From positions 4,160,001-4,224,000 of the forward strand of contig CBDDPY010000002.1 in the NCBI GenBank assembly GCA_965232515.1: 64,000 bases of DNA. The letters are read 5' to 3'. This stretch comes from Alphaproteobacteria bacterium. GTDB lineage: Bacteria > Pseudomonadota > Alphaproteobacteria > GCA-2731375. Position 1 is the stretch's first letter; every line of letters begins with the position of its first letter. The position numbers and the translations under genes were made by a program. The notes under the pieces were generated by a model. It had not been told where the DNA came from, searched no databases, and saw nothing but the letters and a program-made list of their open reading frames with translations. This document shows positions 39,277 to 56,911 of the stretch, one piece after another.

Positions 39277-40485
39277 TCATCTCGGCGCCATCAGTCTCCG
39301 GATTGGGCGGACGACCTGCGGCAGAAGTGGCACCCGTCGCAACTCGCTTCGCAGCAACATCGCGGCCGCCTTCAACGGCCGCAGTCGCTTCGAACGCGCC
39401 ACACTCCGATCGATGGCGCGAACAATGTCATCGCGGCCGCGTTCCTGCGCCGCGTCACGAATCTCCAACGCGAAATCGACGTCGCTCTGATGCATCAGAT
39501 AGACGTTCGCCACGCGATCCAAACTGTAGTCGATCCAGTCGAACGATCTGCCCAGACGCCGCTTGTCCAGCAGATCGAGCGTCACCATTGTCCGCAGGCA
39601 TTTGCTGCATTGGCTGCAATTCGACGCGCTGCGAGAACGCCAGCACACGCGCAATGTGGCCGCCGCCTCGGGTTCTTCGCAGATCCGCGCCGTCTTTTCG
39701 ACACGCGTGGCGACGCCGCCATGATGAACGAACGCCATATGCGCCGAGCTGTATAGCGGGTCGGCCAGCGGATGCGATCCCCAGGGCGCCAGATGCCCGA
39801 AGTCATGCGTCGATCCGATCAGCATGGTCTTGAACTTGTTCGACAGCAGATGGCCGACGCATGCCAACGCCGCGCCATGTGTCAATTCACCCCACCAGCG
39901 CTGAAATCCAGGCAAATCGCGCAGATTTGTGGCAATCGGAATGAGCGCCTTGTCGAAATGCGCGGCCGTACGTTCGCCGATCGCGCATGCCTGGGCAAAC
40001 TCGTCCGGCGCCTCGAGCGGAATATCGAAGCCCCACATCATCACAAGGCTGGTCACATCGGCGCTGGCGGCATCGTCAACGCCGTCGTCCGCACCCAGCA
40101 ACGAGAAATAGCCATCGACGCCGCCACTGAAGAACAGGCCGGTTTCGGTGCCACGAATTGGATTGGGACACGCCTGTGTCTCGATGTCGACGGGCCGCGT
40201 CCACGGATACCAGCTGTGCCAGAGACGTTGCAGGCCCTTGAGATTGTAAAGAAGCGTCGGATCGACCGGGAGGTCGATGACGAGGTCCTCTTCCGCGCAT
40301 ATCGCCGCCGGCAAAAGCATGACCAGCCAGGGTTCGCCGCGGTCGTTGACACTGGCCTCCAGGCCGGTCGGCAAATCGAACCATATCGTCCGGGGCTGCT
40401 GACGTGCGAACGCGACCTCTGCTGAAATTCGAACGTGGCCGGAACCCGACGGCGATGGGCGCCGATCGACGGCAACGAGCTGCAC
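39277..40485 (-). CDS. PP-loop (adenine nucleotide alpha-hydrolase, QueC-like) protein, copy 1
   Basis: FFSGGVDG, WGSHP, RVEK, VCW..NCSQCSKCLRT. Confidence 0.7.
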   Translation of the reverse strand: MQLVAVDRRPSPSGSGHVRISAEVAFARQQPRTIWFDLPTGLEASVNDRGEPWLVMLLPAAICAEEDLVIDLPVDPTLLYNLKGLQRLWHSWYPWTRPVDIETQACPNPIRGTETGLFFSGGVDGYFSLLGADDGVDDAASADVTSLVMMWGFDIPLEAPDEFAQACAIGERTAAHFDKALIPIATNLRDLPGFQRWWGELTHGAALACVGHLLSNKFKTMLIGSTHDFGHLAPWGSHPLADPLYSSAHMAFVHHGGVATRVEKTARICEEPEAAATLRVCWRSRSASNCSQCSKCLRTMVTLDLLDKRRLGRSFDWIDYSLDRVANVYLMHQSDVDFALEIRDAAQERGRDDIVRAIDRSVARSKRLRPLKAAAMLLRSELRRVPLLPQVVRPIRRLMAPR

Positions 40486-43875: not shown

Positions 43876-44784
43876 TCACCCCTTGATGACGTTGGCCAGA
43901 TGCTTGAGCGAGGGGAGGTGGCCGGAGCGTTGGCGGCGCAAATGATAACGCGCGGGCTGGTAGAGCTGCTCGACGGAACGCACCTCGATGTCGCGTATCT
44001 CGTCGGCCTTCACGAAGAACGCATTTACCCCCGCCAGACCGCAACAGACGAGTTCGTAGCCGCGACCCTTCAGCAGCTCGACGAAACATTGCAACGAGGC
44101 GCCCTGATAATCGTCATCGTGCCACGCGTGCCGGTCATTGTAGTCGATAGTGATTTGCATCGGTGGCGGATACTTGGCGTTGTATTCGACGCAGACCACC
44201 CTGGCATCGAGACGCGTGAGCCGCTCCAGCACATAGACATCGTTGCCGTCGATATCGACCGACAGGAAATCGACCGCAAGCGGAAACGTCGTCTCGCCAA
44301 GCGATCGGAAGGCGTCCTCCAGAACGTCGTCGATATTGTCCCGATCGACAAAGGCGTTCGCGACCACCAGCTTGCGGCTGCGCAGGGGCAGGAACCGGGC
44401 GATGAAGTCGGTCTTCTTCTTCGATCCCTCGACCCAGACGCCGCGCCAGTCCTTGAGCAACAGCGCATGCGTGTTGTTCTCCAAACCATCGGAAGCGCCG
44501 ATCTCGCAGAACAGCTTCGACCTGGTGCCGATACGATCGAAGATCTCGGCGACGATACCGTCCTCGTCGTTTTGCGAGTAAATCTTGTGCCCGGACAGCA
44601 CCAGGGATTTGTCGTCTTGGGCGCGAACCCTCTCTTTCAGCCGGTCATATTCCTGCTCGATGGCGATCTGCAGGTTGACGTCCTCGATGATCTGCAGCGT
44701 GCCCTGCAGGACGAAGCGGAAGAATTTCTGCAGCGGTCGGAAGATACGCTTCAATACGTCGATCACGGCAATCACTTTCGGCAA
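43876..44784 (-). CDS. FkbM-like methyltransferase (start uncertain)
   Basis: YSQNDEDGI, EIGASDG.ENN, SVDIDGND, EYN, GASL, NAFFV. Confidence 0.8.
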   Translation of the reverse strand: MPKVIAVIDVLKRIFRPLQKFFRFVLQGTLQIIEDVNLQIAIEQEYDRLKERVRAQDDKSLVLSGHKIYSQNDEDGIVAEIFDRIGTRSKLFCEIGASDGLENNTHALLLKDWRGVWVEGSKKKTDFIARFLPLRSRKLVVANAFVDRDNIDDVLEDAFRSLGETTFPLAVDFLSVDIDGNDVYVLERLTRLDARVVCVEYNAKYPPPMQITIDYNDRHAWHDDDYQGASLQCFVELLKGRGYELVCCGLAGVNAFFVKADEIRDIEVRSVEQLYQPARYHLRRQRSGHLPSLKHLANVIKG

Positions 44785-46329: not shown

Positions 46330-47736
46330 ATGATGGCTGACCGGTTGGCGCGGCTGGCGTTCTGGCTCTCGCTGTGTGTCGCCGCCTTCGCTTATGGCGT
46401 CGCCGTCGTCGGCTTCCAGATCTTTCCCTATGCGTTCGTCCGATCGACGTTCGTTACGCTTGGCGAGATAAAGCAACACGTCACCGCGAAGAATGTCGGC
46501 GCGTTTCTGAAATTCTCTGACATCGAACGGCTGAACGCGGCGTCCGAACGCATTCAGCCGGTGCGTGACGCCGAGACCGACGATGGCTTTCTGTTCTTCG
46601 GCGGCCAGTTTCAGTTCATGGAGCACTGCCCCGAACGGGGCTGCCTCGCGGTCATCTATTCGCGGTCCGGCGAACTGGTCGAGGCCTATCCCTACCGGCC
46701 GCGCGACATCTTCGAGAGCAACGAAGCGACCGGCTTTCCCTACGAGACGATCTTTTTCGACTTCAGCCGGCATTCCAATCCGCTGGGCATCGAACGCTAT
46801 GCCAACGGCGACCTGCTGGCGGTGTTCCAGGGCCAATTCGTCTTTCCGTTCGGCACCGGCGTCGCGCGCGTCGACCGGGACGGCCGCCCCGTCTGGTTCC
46901 GCTGGGACTACAGCCACCACTGGCCGACGCTGAATGCCGACGAGCAGGCGATCGTGCCCGGTACGCAGATCGGCGACGCGCCCGTGGCCGTGAAGATGCC
47001 GGGCTGGGGCTTCCGCCTGCAATGCAAGAGCGGGCATCCCTATCGCGACACGCTGAAGGTCCTCGATCCCGACGGCGAGATGCGCCGCGAGATATTCGTG
47101 CTGGACGCGCTGCTGGCCTCGCCTTACCGCGCCGTGCTGAAGCAGTCGACGGATCCCTGCGATCCGACGCACCTGAACTATGCGCAGCAGGTGTCGGACG
47201 ACCTTGCCGCCAACATCGACGGCGTCGCGGCCGGCGACTTCCTGGTCTCGCTACGGAACATCAGCGCCTTCGGCTTCATCGACGGCGCGGACGGGCGCCT
47301 GAAACGCCTGGTGCGCGGCACCTTCATCCAGCAGCACAGCGTGCAGCACCTGCGGGGCACCCAGTTCCTGATGTTTGACAACCTGGGCGCCGACGCCGAG
47401 GGCGGCCCGTCGCGGCTGCTGCTGGTCGACCTGTCGAGCGGCGCCGAGACGACGATTTTCCCAAACGCGCGCACGCCCGAGGCATTCCGGTCCATGTTCT
47501 CGGCAACCGGCGGACACGTCACGGTGTCGCCGGACCGCCGACGCGCGATCATCGCCTATACGCGCGCCGGCAAGGCGTTCGAGATCCGCCTGTCGGACGG
47601 CGCCGTCCTGACCGCGTTCAACAATCTTCACGACGTCGCCAGGGTCGACGAACTGTCGGACAAACGCGCGCAGTTTGCCGCCGTCTTCCGCACCTACGGC
47701 ATCGATTACGTCCAGATGAGGAGACAAGTGCAATGA
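46330..47736 (+). CDS. Aryl-sulfate sulfotransferase (ASST family, PAPS-independent), membrane-anchored
   Basis: N-terminal TM; SHH, THLN, SLRN, QQHS, FDN in the order of the ASST catalytic residues. Confidence 0.82.
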   Translation: MMADRLARLAFWLSLCVAAFAYGVAVVGFQIFPYAFVRSTFVTLGEIKQHVTAKNVGAFLKFSDIERLNAASERIQPVRDAETDDGFLFFGGQFQFMEHCPERGCLAVIYSRSGELVEAYPYRPRDIFESNEATGFPYETIFFDFSRHSNPLGIERYANGDLLAVFQGQFVFPFGTGVARVDRDGRPVWFRWDYSHHWPTLNADEQAIVPGTQIGDAPVAVKMPGWGFRLQCKSGHPYRDTLKVLDPDGEMRREIFVLDALLASPYRAVLKQSTDPCDPTHLNYAQQVSDDLAANIDGVAAGDFLVSLRNISAFGFIDGADGRLKRLVRGTFIQQHSVQHLRGTQFLMFDNLGADAEGGPSRLLLVDLSSGAETTIFPNARTPEAFRSMFSATGGHVTVSPDRRRAIIAYTRAGKAFEIRLSDGAVLTAFNNLHDVARVDELSDKRAQFAAVFRTYGIDYVQMRRQVQ

Positions 47737-47978
47737 GATGTCTTTCCGTCCTCGCGCTCACGGCCGGGCTGCTGCTGGCGGCCGCCGAGGCGCAGGCCTA
47801 TATCGGACCCGGCGCCGGGCTGTCGGCGATCGGCGCGGTGATCGCCGTGGTCGCCGCCATGATGCTGGCCGTGGTCGGCTTCGTCTGGTACCCGGTCAAG
47901 CGGCTGATGCGGCGGCGCGGCGCCGCCAAGAGCGACGCGGCCAAGAACGCCCCGCAACAGGCAAACGCTGATCGATGA
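47733..47978 (+). CDS. Small membrane protein with AQA|YIGPGAG motif
   Basis: Signal peptide, YIGPGAG, second TM, basic tail; ATGA overlaps at both ends; GAGGAG RBS. Confidence 0.8.
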   Translation: MRCLSVLALTAGLLLAAAEAQAYIGPGAGLSAIGAVIAVVAAMMLAVVGFVWYPVKRLMRRRGAAKSDAAKNAPQQANADR

Positions 47979-48343
47979 TCATTGCGGCCGCGATCCTGGC
48001 CGTGGCGCTGTTCGTCGTCGCCTTCCGCATGGCGGGGATCGTGCCGATCGCGGCCGATGTCGTGAGCGTGTCGCGCCGGGCCGCGGCGGTGATCGCCGAC
48101 AGCAGCCTTGACGACGATGCCAAGGAACGGCAGATCCGGGCGGCCTCGAAGGGCTTGATGGTCAGCTTCCTGCAGATCTGCCTGCGGACGGGGGTCGTTC
48201 TGGCCGTACCGGCGATCTGCCTCTATGCCGCGTCGCTTGCCGGCCTGATCGAACTGACCGCGGTCAGCGAGACGCTGCTTCGGTGGGAGTTTATCCTGCT
48301 CAGCACCGTCGCCATCGTCGTGGTCAGCATCGTCTGGCGATGA
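47975..48343 (+). CDS. Small membrane protein (about 3 TM), hypothetical
   Basis: Hydrophobic helices around LDDDAKERQIR; ATGA overlaps at both ends. Confidence 0.75.
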   Translation: MIIAAAILAVALFVVAFRMAGIVPIAADVVSVSRRAAAVIADSSLDDDAKERQIRAASKGLMVSFLQICLRTGVVLAVPAICLYAASLAGLIELTAVSETLLRWEFILLSTVAIVVVSIVWR

Positions 48344-49428
48344 GCTTCGCCCACGGCTTCTCCGGCCTCGACCGGTTTCTGCACCGGCTGGCGTTCAACG
48401 GCACCGGTTTGCAGATGGCGGTGGCGGATATCGAGGACCGGCTCTATGCCGGGCGCTACGCCGAGATCGCCGTCGACCGGCCGGTCTTCGTTACCTCGCT
48501 GCCGCGCGCCGGCACGACGCTGCTGCTGGAAGTGCTGGCGGCTCACCCTGACTTCGCGACGCATACCTATCGCGAGATGCCGTTCGTGCTCTGCCCGCTA
48601 ATGTGGCATGCGGTGTCGCGGTCGTTTCGACAGGCCGGCGGCGCGCGCGAACGCGCGCACGGCGACGGCATGACCGTGGACTACGACAGCGTCGAGGCCT
48701 TCGAGGAAATTCTCTGGCGCGCGTTCTGGCCGAAAAAATATGCCGCCGACCGGATCGCGCTTTGGGACGGGGACGACATCGCGGCCGACGATGAGTTCGG
48801 CCCGTTCCTCGCCAACCATATCCGCAAGCTGATCGCGCTCAGGCGACGGGACGGCCTTGCGCCCAGCCGCTATGCATCGAAGAACAACGCCAACATCGCC
48901 CGGCTGCCGGCGCTGGCGCGGCTGTTCCCCGACGCGGTGATCCTGATCCCGTTCCGCAATCCCGTCGACCATGCCGGTTCGATGCTGCGTCAGCACCGGA
49001 ACTTCACGAAGATCCACGGCGAGGACGCCTTCGCCCGACGCTACATGCAGGGCATCGGGCATCTGGAGTTCGGCGAGGCGCTGTGCCCGATCGACTTCGG
49101 CGGCTGGCTGGACCGGAGCGACCTGGCGCCGGCGGACAGTGCGGACTACTGGCTGGCCTATTGGTGCGCGGCCTTCGAGCACGTGCTGGAGGCGCGGCCG
49201 GCCGGCGCGCATCTCGTGAGCTACGACGCCACTTGCCGGGCCGCCACGGGCGCGCTCGGCAGGATCGCCGATGAAATCGGGCTCGACGACCCGGCGCCTC
49301 TAATGTGCCAGGCCTGCAGGTTCCGGCCGCCGGTTGGTTATGACGCCGGCGACCTGGGCGGCAGCCGGGCGCTCGTCGAACGGGCCTTTGCCATCCATGA
49401 TCGGTTGCGCGACGCCGCCATCGGCTAG
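48340..49428 (+). CDS. PAPS-dependent sulfotransferase
   Basis: PVFVTSLPRAGTT, EAFEE, SKNN, FRNP..HA.S; no signal peptide. Confidence 0.9.
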   Translation: MSFAHGFSGLDRFLHRLAFNGTGLQMAVADIEDRLYAGRYAEIAVDRPVFVTSLPRAGTTLLLEVLAAHPDFATHTYREMPFVLCPLMWHAVSRSFRQAGGARERAHGDGMTVDYDSVEAFEEILWRAFWPKKYAADRIALWDGDDIAADDEFGPFLANHIRKLIALRRRDGLAPSRYASKNNANIARLPALARLFPDAVILIPFRNPVDHAGSMLRQHRNFTKIHGEDAFARRYMQGIGHLEFGEALCPIDFGGWLDRSDLAPADSADYWLAYWCAAFEHVLEARPAGAHLVSYDATCRAATGALGRIADEIGLDDPAPLMCQACRFRPPVGYDAGDLGGSRALVERAFAIHDRLRDAAIG

Positions 49429-55699: not shown

Positions 55700-56911
55700 T
55701 CAGCGCCTCGATCGAACGGCGAAACGAACCAGCCGGCGGGCAATACGTCTTAGCGGACCGATAAACCTGTATTTCAACAACAACAGTCGGACCCGCCTGA
55801 ACGCTGGCGCGGACCGGCCATGCGCCTTTGCGTGATCAAGCAGCGACCGCAGCTCTTGGGCCTGGGCGTCCTGCCTGATCTTTATGCGGCTCAGGTCACG
55901 AATATCGAGCGCCGTTTCAAAGCACGGCGCTTCCTGGGCGCCAGCAGCGAGGAAATTCAGTTGCGTGCGCAGGCATTTTTCGCACTTGCCGCAATTTCGG
56001 TCCTGTCGTTTTCCCTCCCAGCAGACCTTGAGACTTCGGCAGGCCTGTTCATCCCGAAGCAACTGTTCGATCTTGTCCGTCCGTGAGAACCCGGCGCCGT
56101 CGTGGACGATGGTAAAGTTGTCTCCGGATAGCAGGTGGTCGGTGGCAGGATTCGAGCCCCATGGGAGGACCAACCCGTCATAGGGTTCTGAACTGCCCGC
56201 CAAACCGAATTCGTAGGCGTGCGCGTACTGATGGAGGCAGGCCGACAATTGCGGCAGAAATGAATCTTCCCACTTCTGCAGCCCTAGCTCTTTTATGTTT
56301 GTGCGAACGACGTGAAGCTCGAGACCCAACCTGTCAATGAGCGGCTCGCAGCGTTTGACTAACGATCTGAAGTCGCTGGCGTTGTCCAACTCGACGTCGA
56401 AGCCATGCACAACCAGCACGGCTGCAAGGTCGTAGGACTGGTTGCCAAGCCATCGACGGGCATGCCGCAGGGCCGTAAACGTTCCGTCGACGCCCCCAGA
56501 AAACGCCGAGATCGCCGTTCGGCTTCGGCGTTCGGGACTCGGATCGACGATTGCGTCGGGGACAACGTCAATCGGCTGATAGACATCCGGACGCCACATA
56601 TGCCAGGCGGCCTGGAACTCGGCGAGGTTCTGCATCGCGCGACGCGACATGGGTCCCCGCACCCGTAATGTGCGCGCCTGTCGCATGGCGTGCAGCACGA
56701 TGCCGAAGACGAAACCATCCAGCACCAGCGGTTCCGGTGCGTCTGGCATGTCAAAGCACTCGAAGTCGATATCCACCCGCCCGCCCGCATTGACGGCACT
56801 CGGGCCTTCGAGCGTCATGCGACGAACGGTTGTCCGTTCGCGCTGCGATTGGGAAACATGCAATGTCAGATCTTGCAACGGCGACTCCACGCTAAACGAT
56901 TGGCACGCCAC
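55700..56911 (-). CDS. PP-loop QueC-like protein, copy 2 (start uncertain)
   Basis: AFSGGVDG, VHGFD, PWGSNP, RTDK, VCW..NCGKCEKCLRT. Confidence 0.7.
   Translation of the reverse strand: MACQSFSVESPLQDLTLHVSQSQRERTTVRRMTLEGPSAVNAGGRVDIDFECFDMPDAPEPLVLDGFVFGIVLHAMRQARTLRVRGPMSRRAMQNLAEFQAAWHMWRPDVYQPIDVVPDAIVDPSPERRSRTAISAFSGGVDGTFTALRHARRWLGNQSYDLAAVLVVHGFDVELDNASDFRSLVKRCEPLIDRLGLELHVVRTNIKELGLQKWEDSFLPQLSACLHQYAHAYEFGLAGSSEPYDGLVLPWGSNPATDHLLSGDNFTIVHDGAGFSRTDKIEQLLRDEQACRSLKVCWEGKRQDRNCGKCEKCLRTQLNFLAAGAQEAPCFETALDIRDLSRIKIRQDAQAQELRSLLDHAKAHGRSAPAFRRVRLLLLKYRFIGPLRRIARRLVRFAVRSRR

Follow-up and report, generated by a model that had tools for sequence, protein, structure and literature searches.

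The micro-protein gene and its product

The DNA analyzed here, referred to throughout as the window, is a 64,000-nucleotide stretch of an alphaproteobacterial genome (assembly GCA_965232515.1, contig CBDDPY010000002.1, positions 4,160,001 to 4,224,000). It carries a small gene for an 81-residue membrane protein, the micro-protein, set between the gene for an arylsulfate sulfotransferase (ASST)-like beta-propeller and the genes for a three-transmembrane (3-TM) protein and a sulfotransferase of the 3'-phosphoadenosine 5'-phosphosulfate (PAPS) type (Table 1). The micro-protein gene is real and strongly conserved, and in the window, as in many relatives, its translation is coupled to that of the ASST-like propeller and the anchored PAPS-type sulfotransferase. 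All four window genes are chained through ATGA overlaps: the start of the micro-protein gene overlaps the stop of the ASST-like gene at 47733-47736, its stop overlaps the start of the 3-TM gene at 47975-47978, and the stop of the 3-TM gene overlaps the ATG of the sulfotransferase gene at 48340-48343.

Table 1. Genes and sequence features of the cassette in the window
Feature	Position	Strand	Basis or remark
ASST-like beta-propeller, 468 aa, with N-terminal membrane anchor (helix 2-29)	46330..47736	+	PF14269, profile match, AlphaFold2 (AF2) model and Foldseek
Shine-Dalgarno-like hexamer GAGGAG	47718..47723	+	9 nt 5' of the micro-protein ATG; direct sequence reading
Micro-protein open reading frame (ORF), 81 aa	47733..47978	+	ATG start; sequence as earlier described
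Predicted cleavable signal peptide, residues 1-22	47733..47798	+	Alignment; AxA ending, sequence and length variable in the family
Head Y-I-G-P-G-A-G, Tyr23-Gly29	47799..47819	+	Invariant; predicted new N terminus, periplasmic face
3-TM protein, 122 aa	47975..48343	+	No Pfam or NCBIfam family match; read as a detached sulfotransferase anchor
PAPS-type sulfotransferase, 362 aa from the overlapping ATG	48340..49428	+	PF13469, motifs, AF2 model and Foldseek

An earlier note on this DNA had described the ORF as a signal peptide ending in AEAQA, the segment YIGPGAG, a TM helix running to FVWYP, and a basic tail, and the sequence matches that description. The layout comprises a short basic n-region (MRC), a 13-residue hydrophobic core, AEAQA, YIGPGAG, a TM segment from L30 to W52, YPVKRLMRRR, and the basic tail; FVW is the end of the TM segment, and FVWYPVKR spans the junction between the TM segment and the tail. 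Residues 20-29 (AQAYIGPGAG) match the family motif, an AxA site followed directly by Y-[IV]-G-P-G-x-G.

Signal-peptide cleavage and topology were derived from sequence rules, namely, the short hydrophobic core, the residues at -1 and -3, and the positive-inside rule. By these rules, the pre-protein would insert as a hairpin and be cut by signal peptidase I after AQA, yielding a mature protein of about 59 residues with a single TM helix. Tyr23 would then be the N-terminal residue, held at the periplasmic face by GPGAG acting as a short, flexible tether, whereas WYPVKR and the basic tail would lie on the cytoplasmic side.

RNA sequencing (RNA-seq) contigs from three libraries of a relative that is 95-99% identical cover the operon, with low depth and possible DNA carry-over. 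Pieces from one RNA-seq run cover 28 of 30 operon bins and include stretches spanning 47512-47813 and 47797-48102, again at low depth and with DNA carry-over possible; we do not take this coverage to prove that the operon is transcribed. A raw-read RNA run, which carries no weight here, gave no reads in this region. Only two differences are listed within the micro-protein gene in the close relative's RNA-library contigs, at 47749 and 47756, both in the signal-peptide part. Read in frame, one changes Val6 to Ala and the other is silent, which fits a variable signal peptide and a fixed mature part.

A small-protein family with an invariant tyrosine

A word-indexed search of proteins of 44-142 residues returned 225 homologues at E<=0.01, the best 120 of which are all unnamed, hypothetical, or apparent automatic misannotations. 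When a 30-member profile was compared with 1.84 billion cluster representatives, 2802 matched at E<=1e-3 and 1290 at E<=1e-10; the best 150 of the 2802 are 64-132 residues long. In contigs drawn from one genome per species, at least 421 of 573 pattern matches were confirmed by tblastn. All locus counts given below refer to the best 80 of these confirmed loci, those most similar to the query, whose record titles name alpha- and gammaproteobacteria, Desulfobacteraceae/Desulfocapsaceae, Planctomycetota, and Bacteroidota. The hosts encountered are environmental bacteria.

The earlier note had mentioned similar small ORFs without an assigned function; homologues are indeed numerous, and no Pfam or NCBIfam family lies above cut-off. 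NCBIfam gave no match to the micro-protein at all, Pfam gave only NfeD below threshold, and the ESM Atlas gave only unnamed "hypothetical protein" clusters. The NfeD integral membrane domain (PF24961) was rejected as an assignment, with 19.1 bits against a cut-off of 26 and a match confined to the hydrophobic stretch. A C-terminal sorting signal of the PEP-CTERM or LPXTG type was likewise rejected, as there is no passenger domain and the motif directly follows the signal peptide; no sortase or exosortase family was found among 122 neighbouring ORFs from 15 sampled loci.

Conservation is concentrated in the part of the protein predicted to remain after cleavage. Across a 30-sequence alignment, the signal-peptide part varies in both sequence and length and the protein is nearly fixed from the AxA site on, with A22, Y23, G25, P26, G27, A28, G29, G34, G49, F50, V51, W52, Y53, P54, and R57 invariant. 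A Tyr stands right after an AxA-type site in all 80 loci (76 by pattern and 4 by eye) and in 265 of 266 family proteins. Among the 263 motif-bearing proteins, Ala occupies -1 in 260, and Ala, Val, Ser, Gly, or Thr occupies -3 in 262. Y53 of WYP is replaced, giving W-P or F-P, in a divergent subfamily found at 12 of the 80 loci, and the first Tyr alone is universal. The weight that the earlier note placed on this second, cytoplasmic-face Tyr is not supported, because the residue is not universal. The only universal features of the family are the cleavage site, the Tyr, the Gly-Pro-Gly arm, a helix rich in small residues, and the aromatic-Pro-basic motif. Signal peptidase cleavage does not need an invariant +1 residue, and the fixed +1 Tyr therefore suggests that this residue has a function of its own.

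Family members share one build, which the window protein fits: a single TM segment ending in aromatic-Pro-x-basic, then a basic tail, in about 65-130 residues and with no further domain. A search for longer forms returned only two proteins (155 and 196 residues), whose extra N termini look like miscalled starts. This near-absence of longer forms indicates that the family stands alone and is not a domain of larger proteins. The host genome carries one copy of the micro-protein. Among relatives, a match was found in only 3 of 41 genomes, its own included, and in 1 of 24 others of the same taxonomic family; the micro-protein behaves as a patchy accessory element.

Linkage to two sulfotransferases of different types

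Profile hidden Markov models (HMMs) built from our own alignments were run against all stop-to-stop frames of the 80 loci. The sulfotransferase, a Sulfotransfer_3 protein, is present at 77 loci, the ASST-like protein at 74, and both at 72; a 3-TM domain of the A3 type is present at 68. Two of the three loci lacking the sulfotransferase and two of the six lacking the ASST-like protein lie on contigs shorter than 3 kb. The commonest gene orders are ASST-like, small, sulfotransferase (36 loci) and small, sulfotransferase, ASST-like (14 loci), and under a first-start rule the start of the membrane ORF overlaps the stop of the micro-protein gene in 36 of 80 loci.

A family-wide HMM scan with a table of neighbours had been suggested in the earlier note, and it yielded both homologues (the 2802 representatives) and nonrandom neighbourhoods (the 72 loci with both enzymes). 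That note had also envisaged a general carrier or an assembly subunit for periplasmic modifying enzymes. The part concerning periplasmic enzymes agrees with the linkage to ASST at 74 of 80 loci; the word "general" is too broad, as the partners are a single pair completed by Sulfotransfer_3 at 77 of 80. Sulfatases, acyltransferases, and carbamoyltransferases, which it had listed as possible partners, occur only sporadically near the family.

The loci that lack the A3-type domain and those whose micro-protein lacks the second Tyr are one and the same set of 12. At 11 of them the membrane partner is of another kind: it is about 145-258 residues long, mostly 224-258, and is predicted to have two or three TM segments, and the longer versions carry a periplasmic insert. 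At L056, L058, L060, L067, L072, L076, L077, and L079, the 224-258-residue partner directly follows the small gene, with the insert between the last two TM segments. No Pfam family matched this alternative partner at L072 and L079, the two loci tested.

Individual loci show further arrangements. In L025:4067-9624, the small gene comes after two tandem ASST-like paralogues, with the sulfotransferase gene upstream of both paralogues, and is itself followed by genes for an acyl-carrier-like and an FkbH-like protein. L072:3858-10599, which has no ASST-like gene, encodes a 651-residue type I phosphodiesterase-family protein and a 691-residue sulfatase-TPR protein around the small gene and sulfotransferase; these two proteins may stand in as outside partners. 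In L020:2350-10883, from a Sulfitobacter record and also with no ASST-like gene nearby, the cassette lies beside genes for a GT4 glycosyltransferase and a UDP-glucose dehydrogenase. RepA- and ParA-type genes on the same contig suggest that this cassette is carried on a plasmid.

The ASST-like protein

The upstream 468-residue protein matches Pfam PF14269 (Arylsulfotran_2) with 34.3 bits against a cut-off of 27. H197, H281, Q335, and H336 are invariant in a 40-sequence alignment of cassette-linked ASST-like homologues, and the profile of that alignment matches Cpz4 (9KF6; E value of 3.6e-15) and Escherichia coli ASST (3ELQ; 2.8e-6). The Q335-H336 pair aligns with Q435-H436 of E. coli ASST; the chain of the H436N mutant gives a lower score and an alignment that begins past that position, which agrees with this numbering. 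A 2026 review reports that His436 of the E. coli enzyme is transiently sulfated (PMC13426309). The AF2 model of the window protein has a predicted local distance difference test (pLDDT) score of 89.4, and its best Foldseek matches are Cpz4 (9kf4; 5.8e-15) and then E. coli ASST. With a Pfam score above cut-off, the fold, and the conserved catalytic His, the protein looks like a genuine ASST-type enzyme and is predicted to be active. Its propeller probably faces the periplasm.

The 3-TM protein and the PAPS-type sulfotransferase

The 362-residue protein matches Pfam PF13469 (Sulfotransfer_3) with 68.8 bits against a cut-off of 27. Invariant in the sulfotransferase alignment are the motifs LPRAGTT and R-x-P-x-x-x-x-x-S (L54, R56, G58, R206, P208, and S214), which we take to be the PAPS motifs, the former as the 5'-phosphosulfate-binding loop and the latter as the 3'-phosphate-binding motif. 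The AF2 model has a pLDDT of 93.9, and Foldseek places it nearest to Stf1 (2zq5; 5.1e-8) and Stf9, followed at ranks 3-11 by tyrosylprotein sulfotransferases, which come ahead of glycan and small-molecule enzymes. The mycobacterial Stf enzymes are the nearest solved relatives by sequence as well, and no RaxST family model matched. The protein thus fits the family of PAPS-dependent sulfotransferases and is predicted to be one; an adenosine 5'-phosphosulfate (APS) kinase is encoded elsewhere in the host genome.

By sequence reading, the 122-residue protein has three TM segments and a conserved cytoplasmic D-D-x-K-E stretch. The 3-TM and catalytic domains share one reading frame of about 470-570 residues at 29 of the 80 loci and are separate ORFs at 36. 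Since the 3-TM domain is fused to the sulfotransferase elsewhere, the window's 122-residue protein can be read as the detached membrane anchor of the enzyme. Fused and split forms, as at L001, L045, and others, point to recurrent fusion and fission of anchor and enzyme. The sulfotransferase has no signal peptide. In the fused forms, TM3 is followed by a basic stretch, which by the positive-inside rule would put the catalytic domain on the cytoplasmic side, the location that an enzyme using PAPS needs. The window enzyme is likewise expected to be cytoplasmic.

Genes outside the cassette

Neighbours outside the cassette differ from locus to locus among the 122 ORFs of the 15 sampled loci. They are mostly housekeeping, transport, and regulatory genes, including those for ion exchangers, glycine cleavage, flagellar export, DAHP synthase, TonB receptors, and regulators. 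Because the genes outside vary, the cassette itself appears to be the functional unit. The earlier note had associated such small ORFs with surface-modification loci; as a marker of these the family fails, as most outside genes in the sample are unrelated to them.

In the window, the neighbours do include glycan genes: GT2 and GT4 glycosyltransferases, a Wzx-type flippase, pyruvyl transferases, TylF methyltransferases, and a second sulfotransferase. Glycan-related neighbours also occur at L020, L043, and L079 and are not the rule. A polysaccharide-specific role was rejected as a general rule, as most flanks differ among the 15 loci; for the cassette of this window, such a role is possible. Two paralogous proteins of about 400 residues with weak DUF6395 matches, encoded at 39277-40485 (-) and 55700-56911 (-), flank the polysaccharide locus. 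A 302-residue ORF within it, at 43876-44784 (-), had no Pfam match at E<=0.01.

Role of the micro-protein

There is no PAPS outside the cytoplasmic membrane, and how bacteria could carry out sulfation beyond that membrane, without PAPS at hand, is a question that this cassette raises. The cassette would have its PAPS enzyme on the cytoplasmic side and its ASST-type enzyme on the outer side, with an invariant tethered Tyr between the two, and it recurs in no fewer than 72 of the 80 loci, which come from hundreds of species genomes in several phyla. The two enzymes are predicted to lie on opposite sides of the membrane, both with conserved catalytic or binding motifs. PAPS-independent aryl sulfotransferases (ASTs) have been investigated as catalysts for decades, yet the 2026 review describes their physiological role and natural substrates as largely unknown; it names tyrosine, tyramine, tyrosine esters, and tyrosine peptides as substrates that these enzymes accept (PMC13426309).

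Our preferred reading, held with slightly less than even confidence, is that the micro-protein is the micro-subunit of a conserved, self-contained, membrane-spanning two-sulfotransferase cassette, in which the tethered Tyr would be the phenol that takes or gives the sulfuryl group. Tyr23, as a protein-borne phenol, would either be sulfated and then pass the sulfuryl group to the ASST-like histidine or receive it from that histidine. Cytoplasmic PAPS would thereby be coupled to PAPS-independent sulfation of envelope targets beyond the membrane. The likeliest route of loading would be sulfation of Tyr23 by the membrane-held sulfotransferase on the pre-protein, prior to insertion, in a manner comparable to RaxX. 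In this window, the surrounding polysaccharide locus would be a candidate final acceptor. A narrower form of the proposal, in which the membrane-tethered N-terminal Tyr, effectively a tyramine anchored through a Gly-Pro-Gly arm, is a new protein-borne carrier of PAPS-derived sulfate and the physiological aryl-sulfate donor for the outward-facing ASST-type enzyme, is more speculative, and we regard it as rather unlikely. A prediction of the four-chain complex (ASST-like protein, 3-TM protein, sulfotransferase, and micro-protein residues 23-66), run with a separate alignment for each chain and without controls, gave scores of 0.01 and 0.03, with the mark at 0.32; these scores count on neither side of the question of binding.

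Several points weigh against a sulfuryl-transferring Tyr. The mature Tyr would be periplasmic and the PAPS enzyme cytoplasmic, leaving a reusable carrier without an obvious reloading route, and loading before insertion would make the micro-protein a single-use donor, at a cost of 81 residues per sulfate. Tight translational coupling suggests roughly equal amounts of micro-protein and enzyme, a balance more in keeping with a subunit than with a consumable. To our knowledge, no peptide substrate has been described for Stf1 and Stf9, the nearest relatives of the sulfotransferase, and the TM-scores of its model against tyrosylprotein sulfotransferases are modest (0.38-0.41 on the query). Sulfation of Tyr23, the signal-peptide cut, and the contacts among the proteins are themselves proposals drawn from sequence. 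Four full-length loci (L020, L072, L074, and L079) lack an ASST-like gene within 7 kb yet retain both the micro-protein gene and the sulfotransferase gene; an ASST-like partner nearby is not strictly obligatory. A PAPS-synthesis gene (a CysNC homologue) lies within 7 kb at only 1 of the 80 loci. Finally, the linkage figures come from the 80 loci nearest to the query and hence from the closer relatives; distant family members may have other partners.

The micro-protein might instead be a structural or assembly subunit only, its TM helix packing on the 3-TM and ASST-like anchors and its Tyr-Gly-Pro-Gly head docking without taking part in chemistry. We consider this unlikely, though a serious contender. 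It sidesteps the topology problem of a carrier, it suits the near-stoichiometric synthesis implied by tight translational coupling, and a helix rich in small residues (G25, G27, G29, G34, and G49 are invariant) is well adapted to helix packing. In addition, the cytoplasmic-face motif covaries with the type of membrane partner, as seen at the 12 loci without an A3-type domain, a pattern that a single split in the tree could also produce. What purely structural packing leaves unexplained is the choice of Tyr over other aromatic or small residues in 80 of 80 loci and 265 of 266 proteins, and it gives no account of why a cleavable signal peptide would be retained merely to expose that Tyr. A less probable alternative is that the sulfated peptide is itself the product, the cassette serving to make a membrane peptide tipped with sulfotyrosine, whether for recognition, signalling, or surface charge, with the micro-protein as the final substrate of one or both enzymes. 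Two different sulfotransferases would be redundant for a single tyrosine, however, and a peptide anchored in the inner membrane, beneath the outer membrane, is poorly placed for recognition from outside; moreover, no exporter or peptidase-containing ABC transporter was found among the 122 neighbouring ORFs of the 15 loci. In its favour, the cassette usually stands alone in those loci, with no obvious acceptor pathway nearby, and published sources describe RaxX as a small ribosomal peptide that is sulfated and clustered with the RaxST gene (PMC6637879) and describe sulfation of tyrosine peptides by ASTs (PMC13426309).

The remaining alternatives carry little weight. A lipid or small phenol, for example of the quinol type, could be sulfated on the inner leaflet and flip, with the micro-protein assisting or serving as a secondary acceptor. 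Such a carrier would be catalytic and reusable and would explain why the PAPS enzyme is membrane anchored; the caprazamycin pathway uses a small-molecule phenolic sulfate (PMC4257720), and the nearest solved relatives of the sulfotransferase are the mycobacterial Stf enzymes. We nevertheless regard this as improbable, for no biosynthesis gene for such a carrier travels with the cassette, nothing points to such a molecule, and the invariant Tyr would be left unexplained. High-GC DNA does yield many spurious ORFs, and two overlapping ORFs are listed at the same place, so that a chance ORF, or an unrelated small membrane protein between two enzyme genes, might have been suspected. Conservation of the protein across alpha-, gamma-, and deltaproteobacterium-type, Planctomycetota, and Bacteroidota records, together with linkage to the same partners at 72-77 of 80 loci, makes that almost inconceivable, and we regard it as already refuted.

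If the Tyr is a carrier as proposed, a ribosomally made sulfuryl carrier based on an amino acid side chain would be added to the known carrier types, and gram-negative bacteria would gain a means of sulfating envelope molecules where PAPS is unavailable. The natural donor for this branch of ASST-type enzymes would also be revealed, and a compact genetic tool for periplasmic sulfation could follow. Should the Tyr prove to be only structural, the cassette would still define an unstudied pair of membrane-bound sulfotransferases. Lying nearly always between two sulfate-transferring enzymes of different kinds, the micro-protein may have a part in moving sulfate through the inner membrane.

Comparison with known systems

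A literature search, covering mostly sources outside subscription journals, found no paper on the motif, the enzyme pairing, a tyrosine micro-protein of this kind, or the cassette. The system is best filed under two-step sulfation, with a micro-protein family that has no described relative. The lipobox of bacterial lipoproteins, where cleavage exposes an invariant +1 Cys that is the site of modification, offers an analogy in its single invariant exposed residue. The micro-protein differs in the residue, in the peptidase (signal peptidase I, by the AxA rule, rather than II), and in the chemistry, and no homology is implied. For the PAPS enzyme, Stf1 (2ZQ5), Stf9 (2Z6V), and TPST1/2 are the nearest solved sequences and folds, at identities of 14-18% and TM-scores of 0.38-0.51; unlike the cassette enzyme, they have neither a 3-TM anchor nor a micro-protein partner.

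RaxX and RaxST of Xanthomonas oryzae are a parallel for the pairing of a small protein with a sulfotransferase. RaxST uses PAPS, and RaxX is sulfated before export by a dedicated transporter; its Tyr is internal, and we know of no membrane anchor on RaxST. A RaxX-like secreted peptide was rejected as an explanation of the micro-protein, as no peptidase-containing ABC exporter was found in the window region or the 15 loci and RaxST gave no match. The likeness lies in a small ribosomal precursor, which in RaxX gives rise to a sulfated-tyrosine peptide, encoded in one cluster (raxX-raxSTAB) with a sulfotransferase gene, and the abstract of the source names no ASST-type enzyme in that cluster (PMC6637879).

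The ASST of E. coli CFT073 (ASST/AssT; 3ELQ, 3ETS, 3ETT, and 4P04-07) resembles the window's ASST-like protein in its beta-propeller and in the histidine aligned to His436, and both are extracytoplasmic, the window protein by prediction. The structural alignment between the two gives about 11% identity. The E. coli enzyme is soluble, belongs to PF05935, and has no PAPS-enzyme partner, whereas the window protein is membrane anchored and belongs to PF14269.

The nearest precedent for the cassette as a whole is the Cpz8/Cpz6/Cpz4 system of Streptomyces sp. MK730-62F2, in which PAPS-dependent and ASST-type enzymes are encoded together. In caprazamycin biosynthesis, as described in an article that cites Tang et al. 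2013, the donor for the ASST-type enzyme is a phenolic sulfate produced beforehand by the PAPS enzyme (PMC4257720). Cpz4 (9KF4 and 9KF6) is also the protein closest to the window's ASST-like protein in both sequence profile and fold. The caprazamycin carrier, however, is a small triketide pyrone, the product of a type III polyketide synthase, and the window cassette encodes no such synthase. In its place stands a membrane micro-protein that is made on the ribosome with a signal peptide and bears an invariant Tyr, for which the carrier role is proposed, and both window enzymes are membrane anchored and predicted to work on opposite sides of the membrane.

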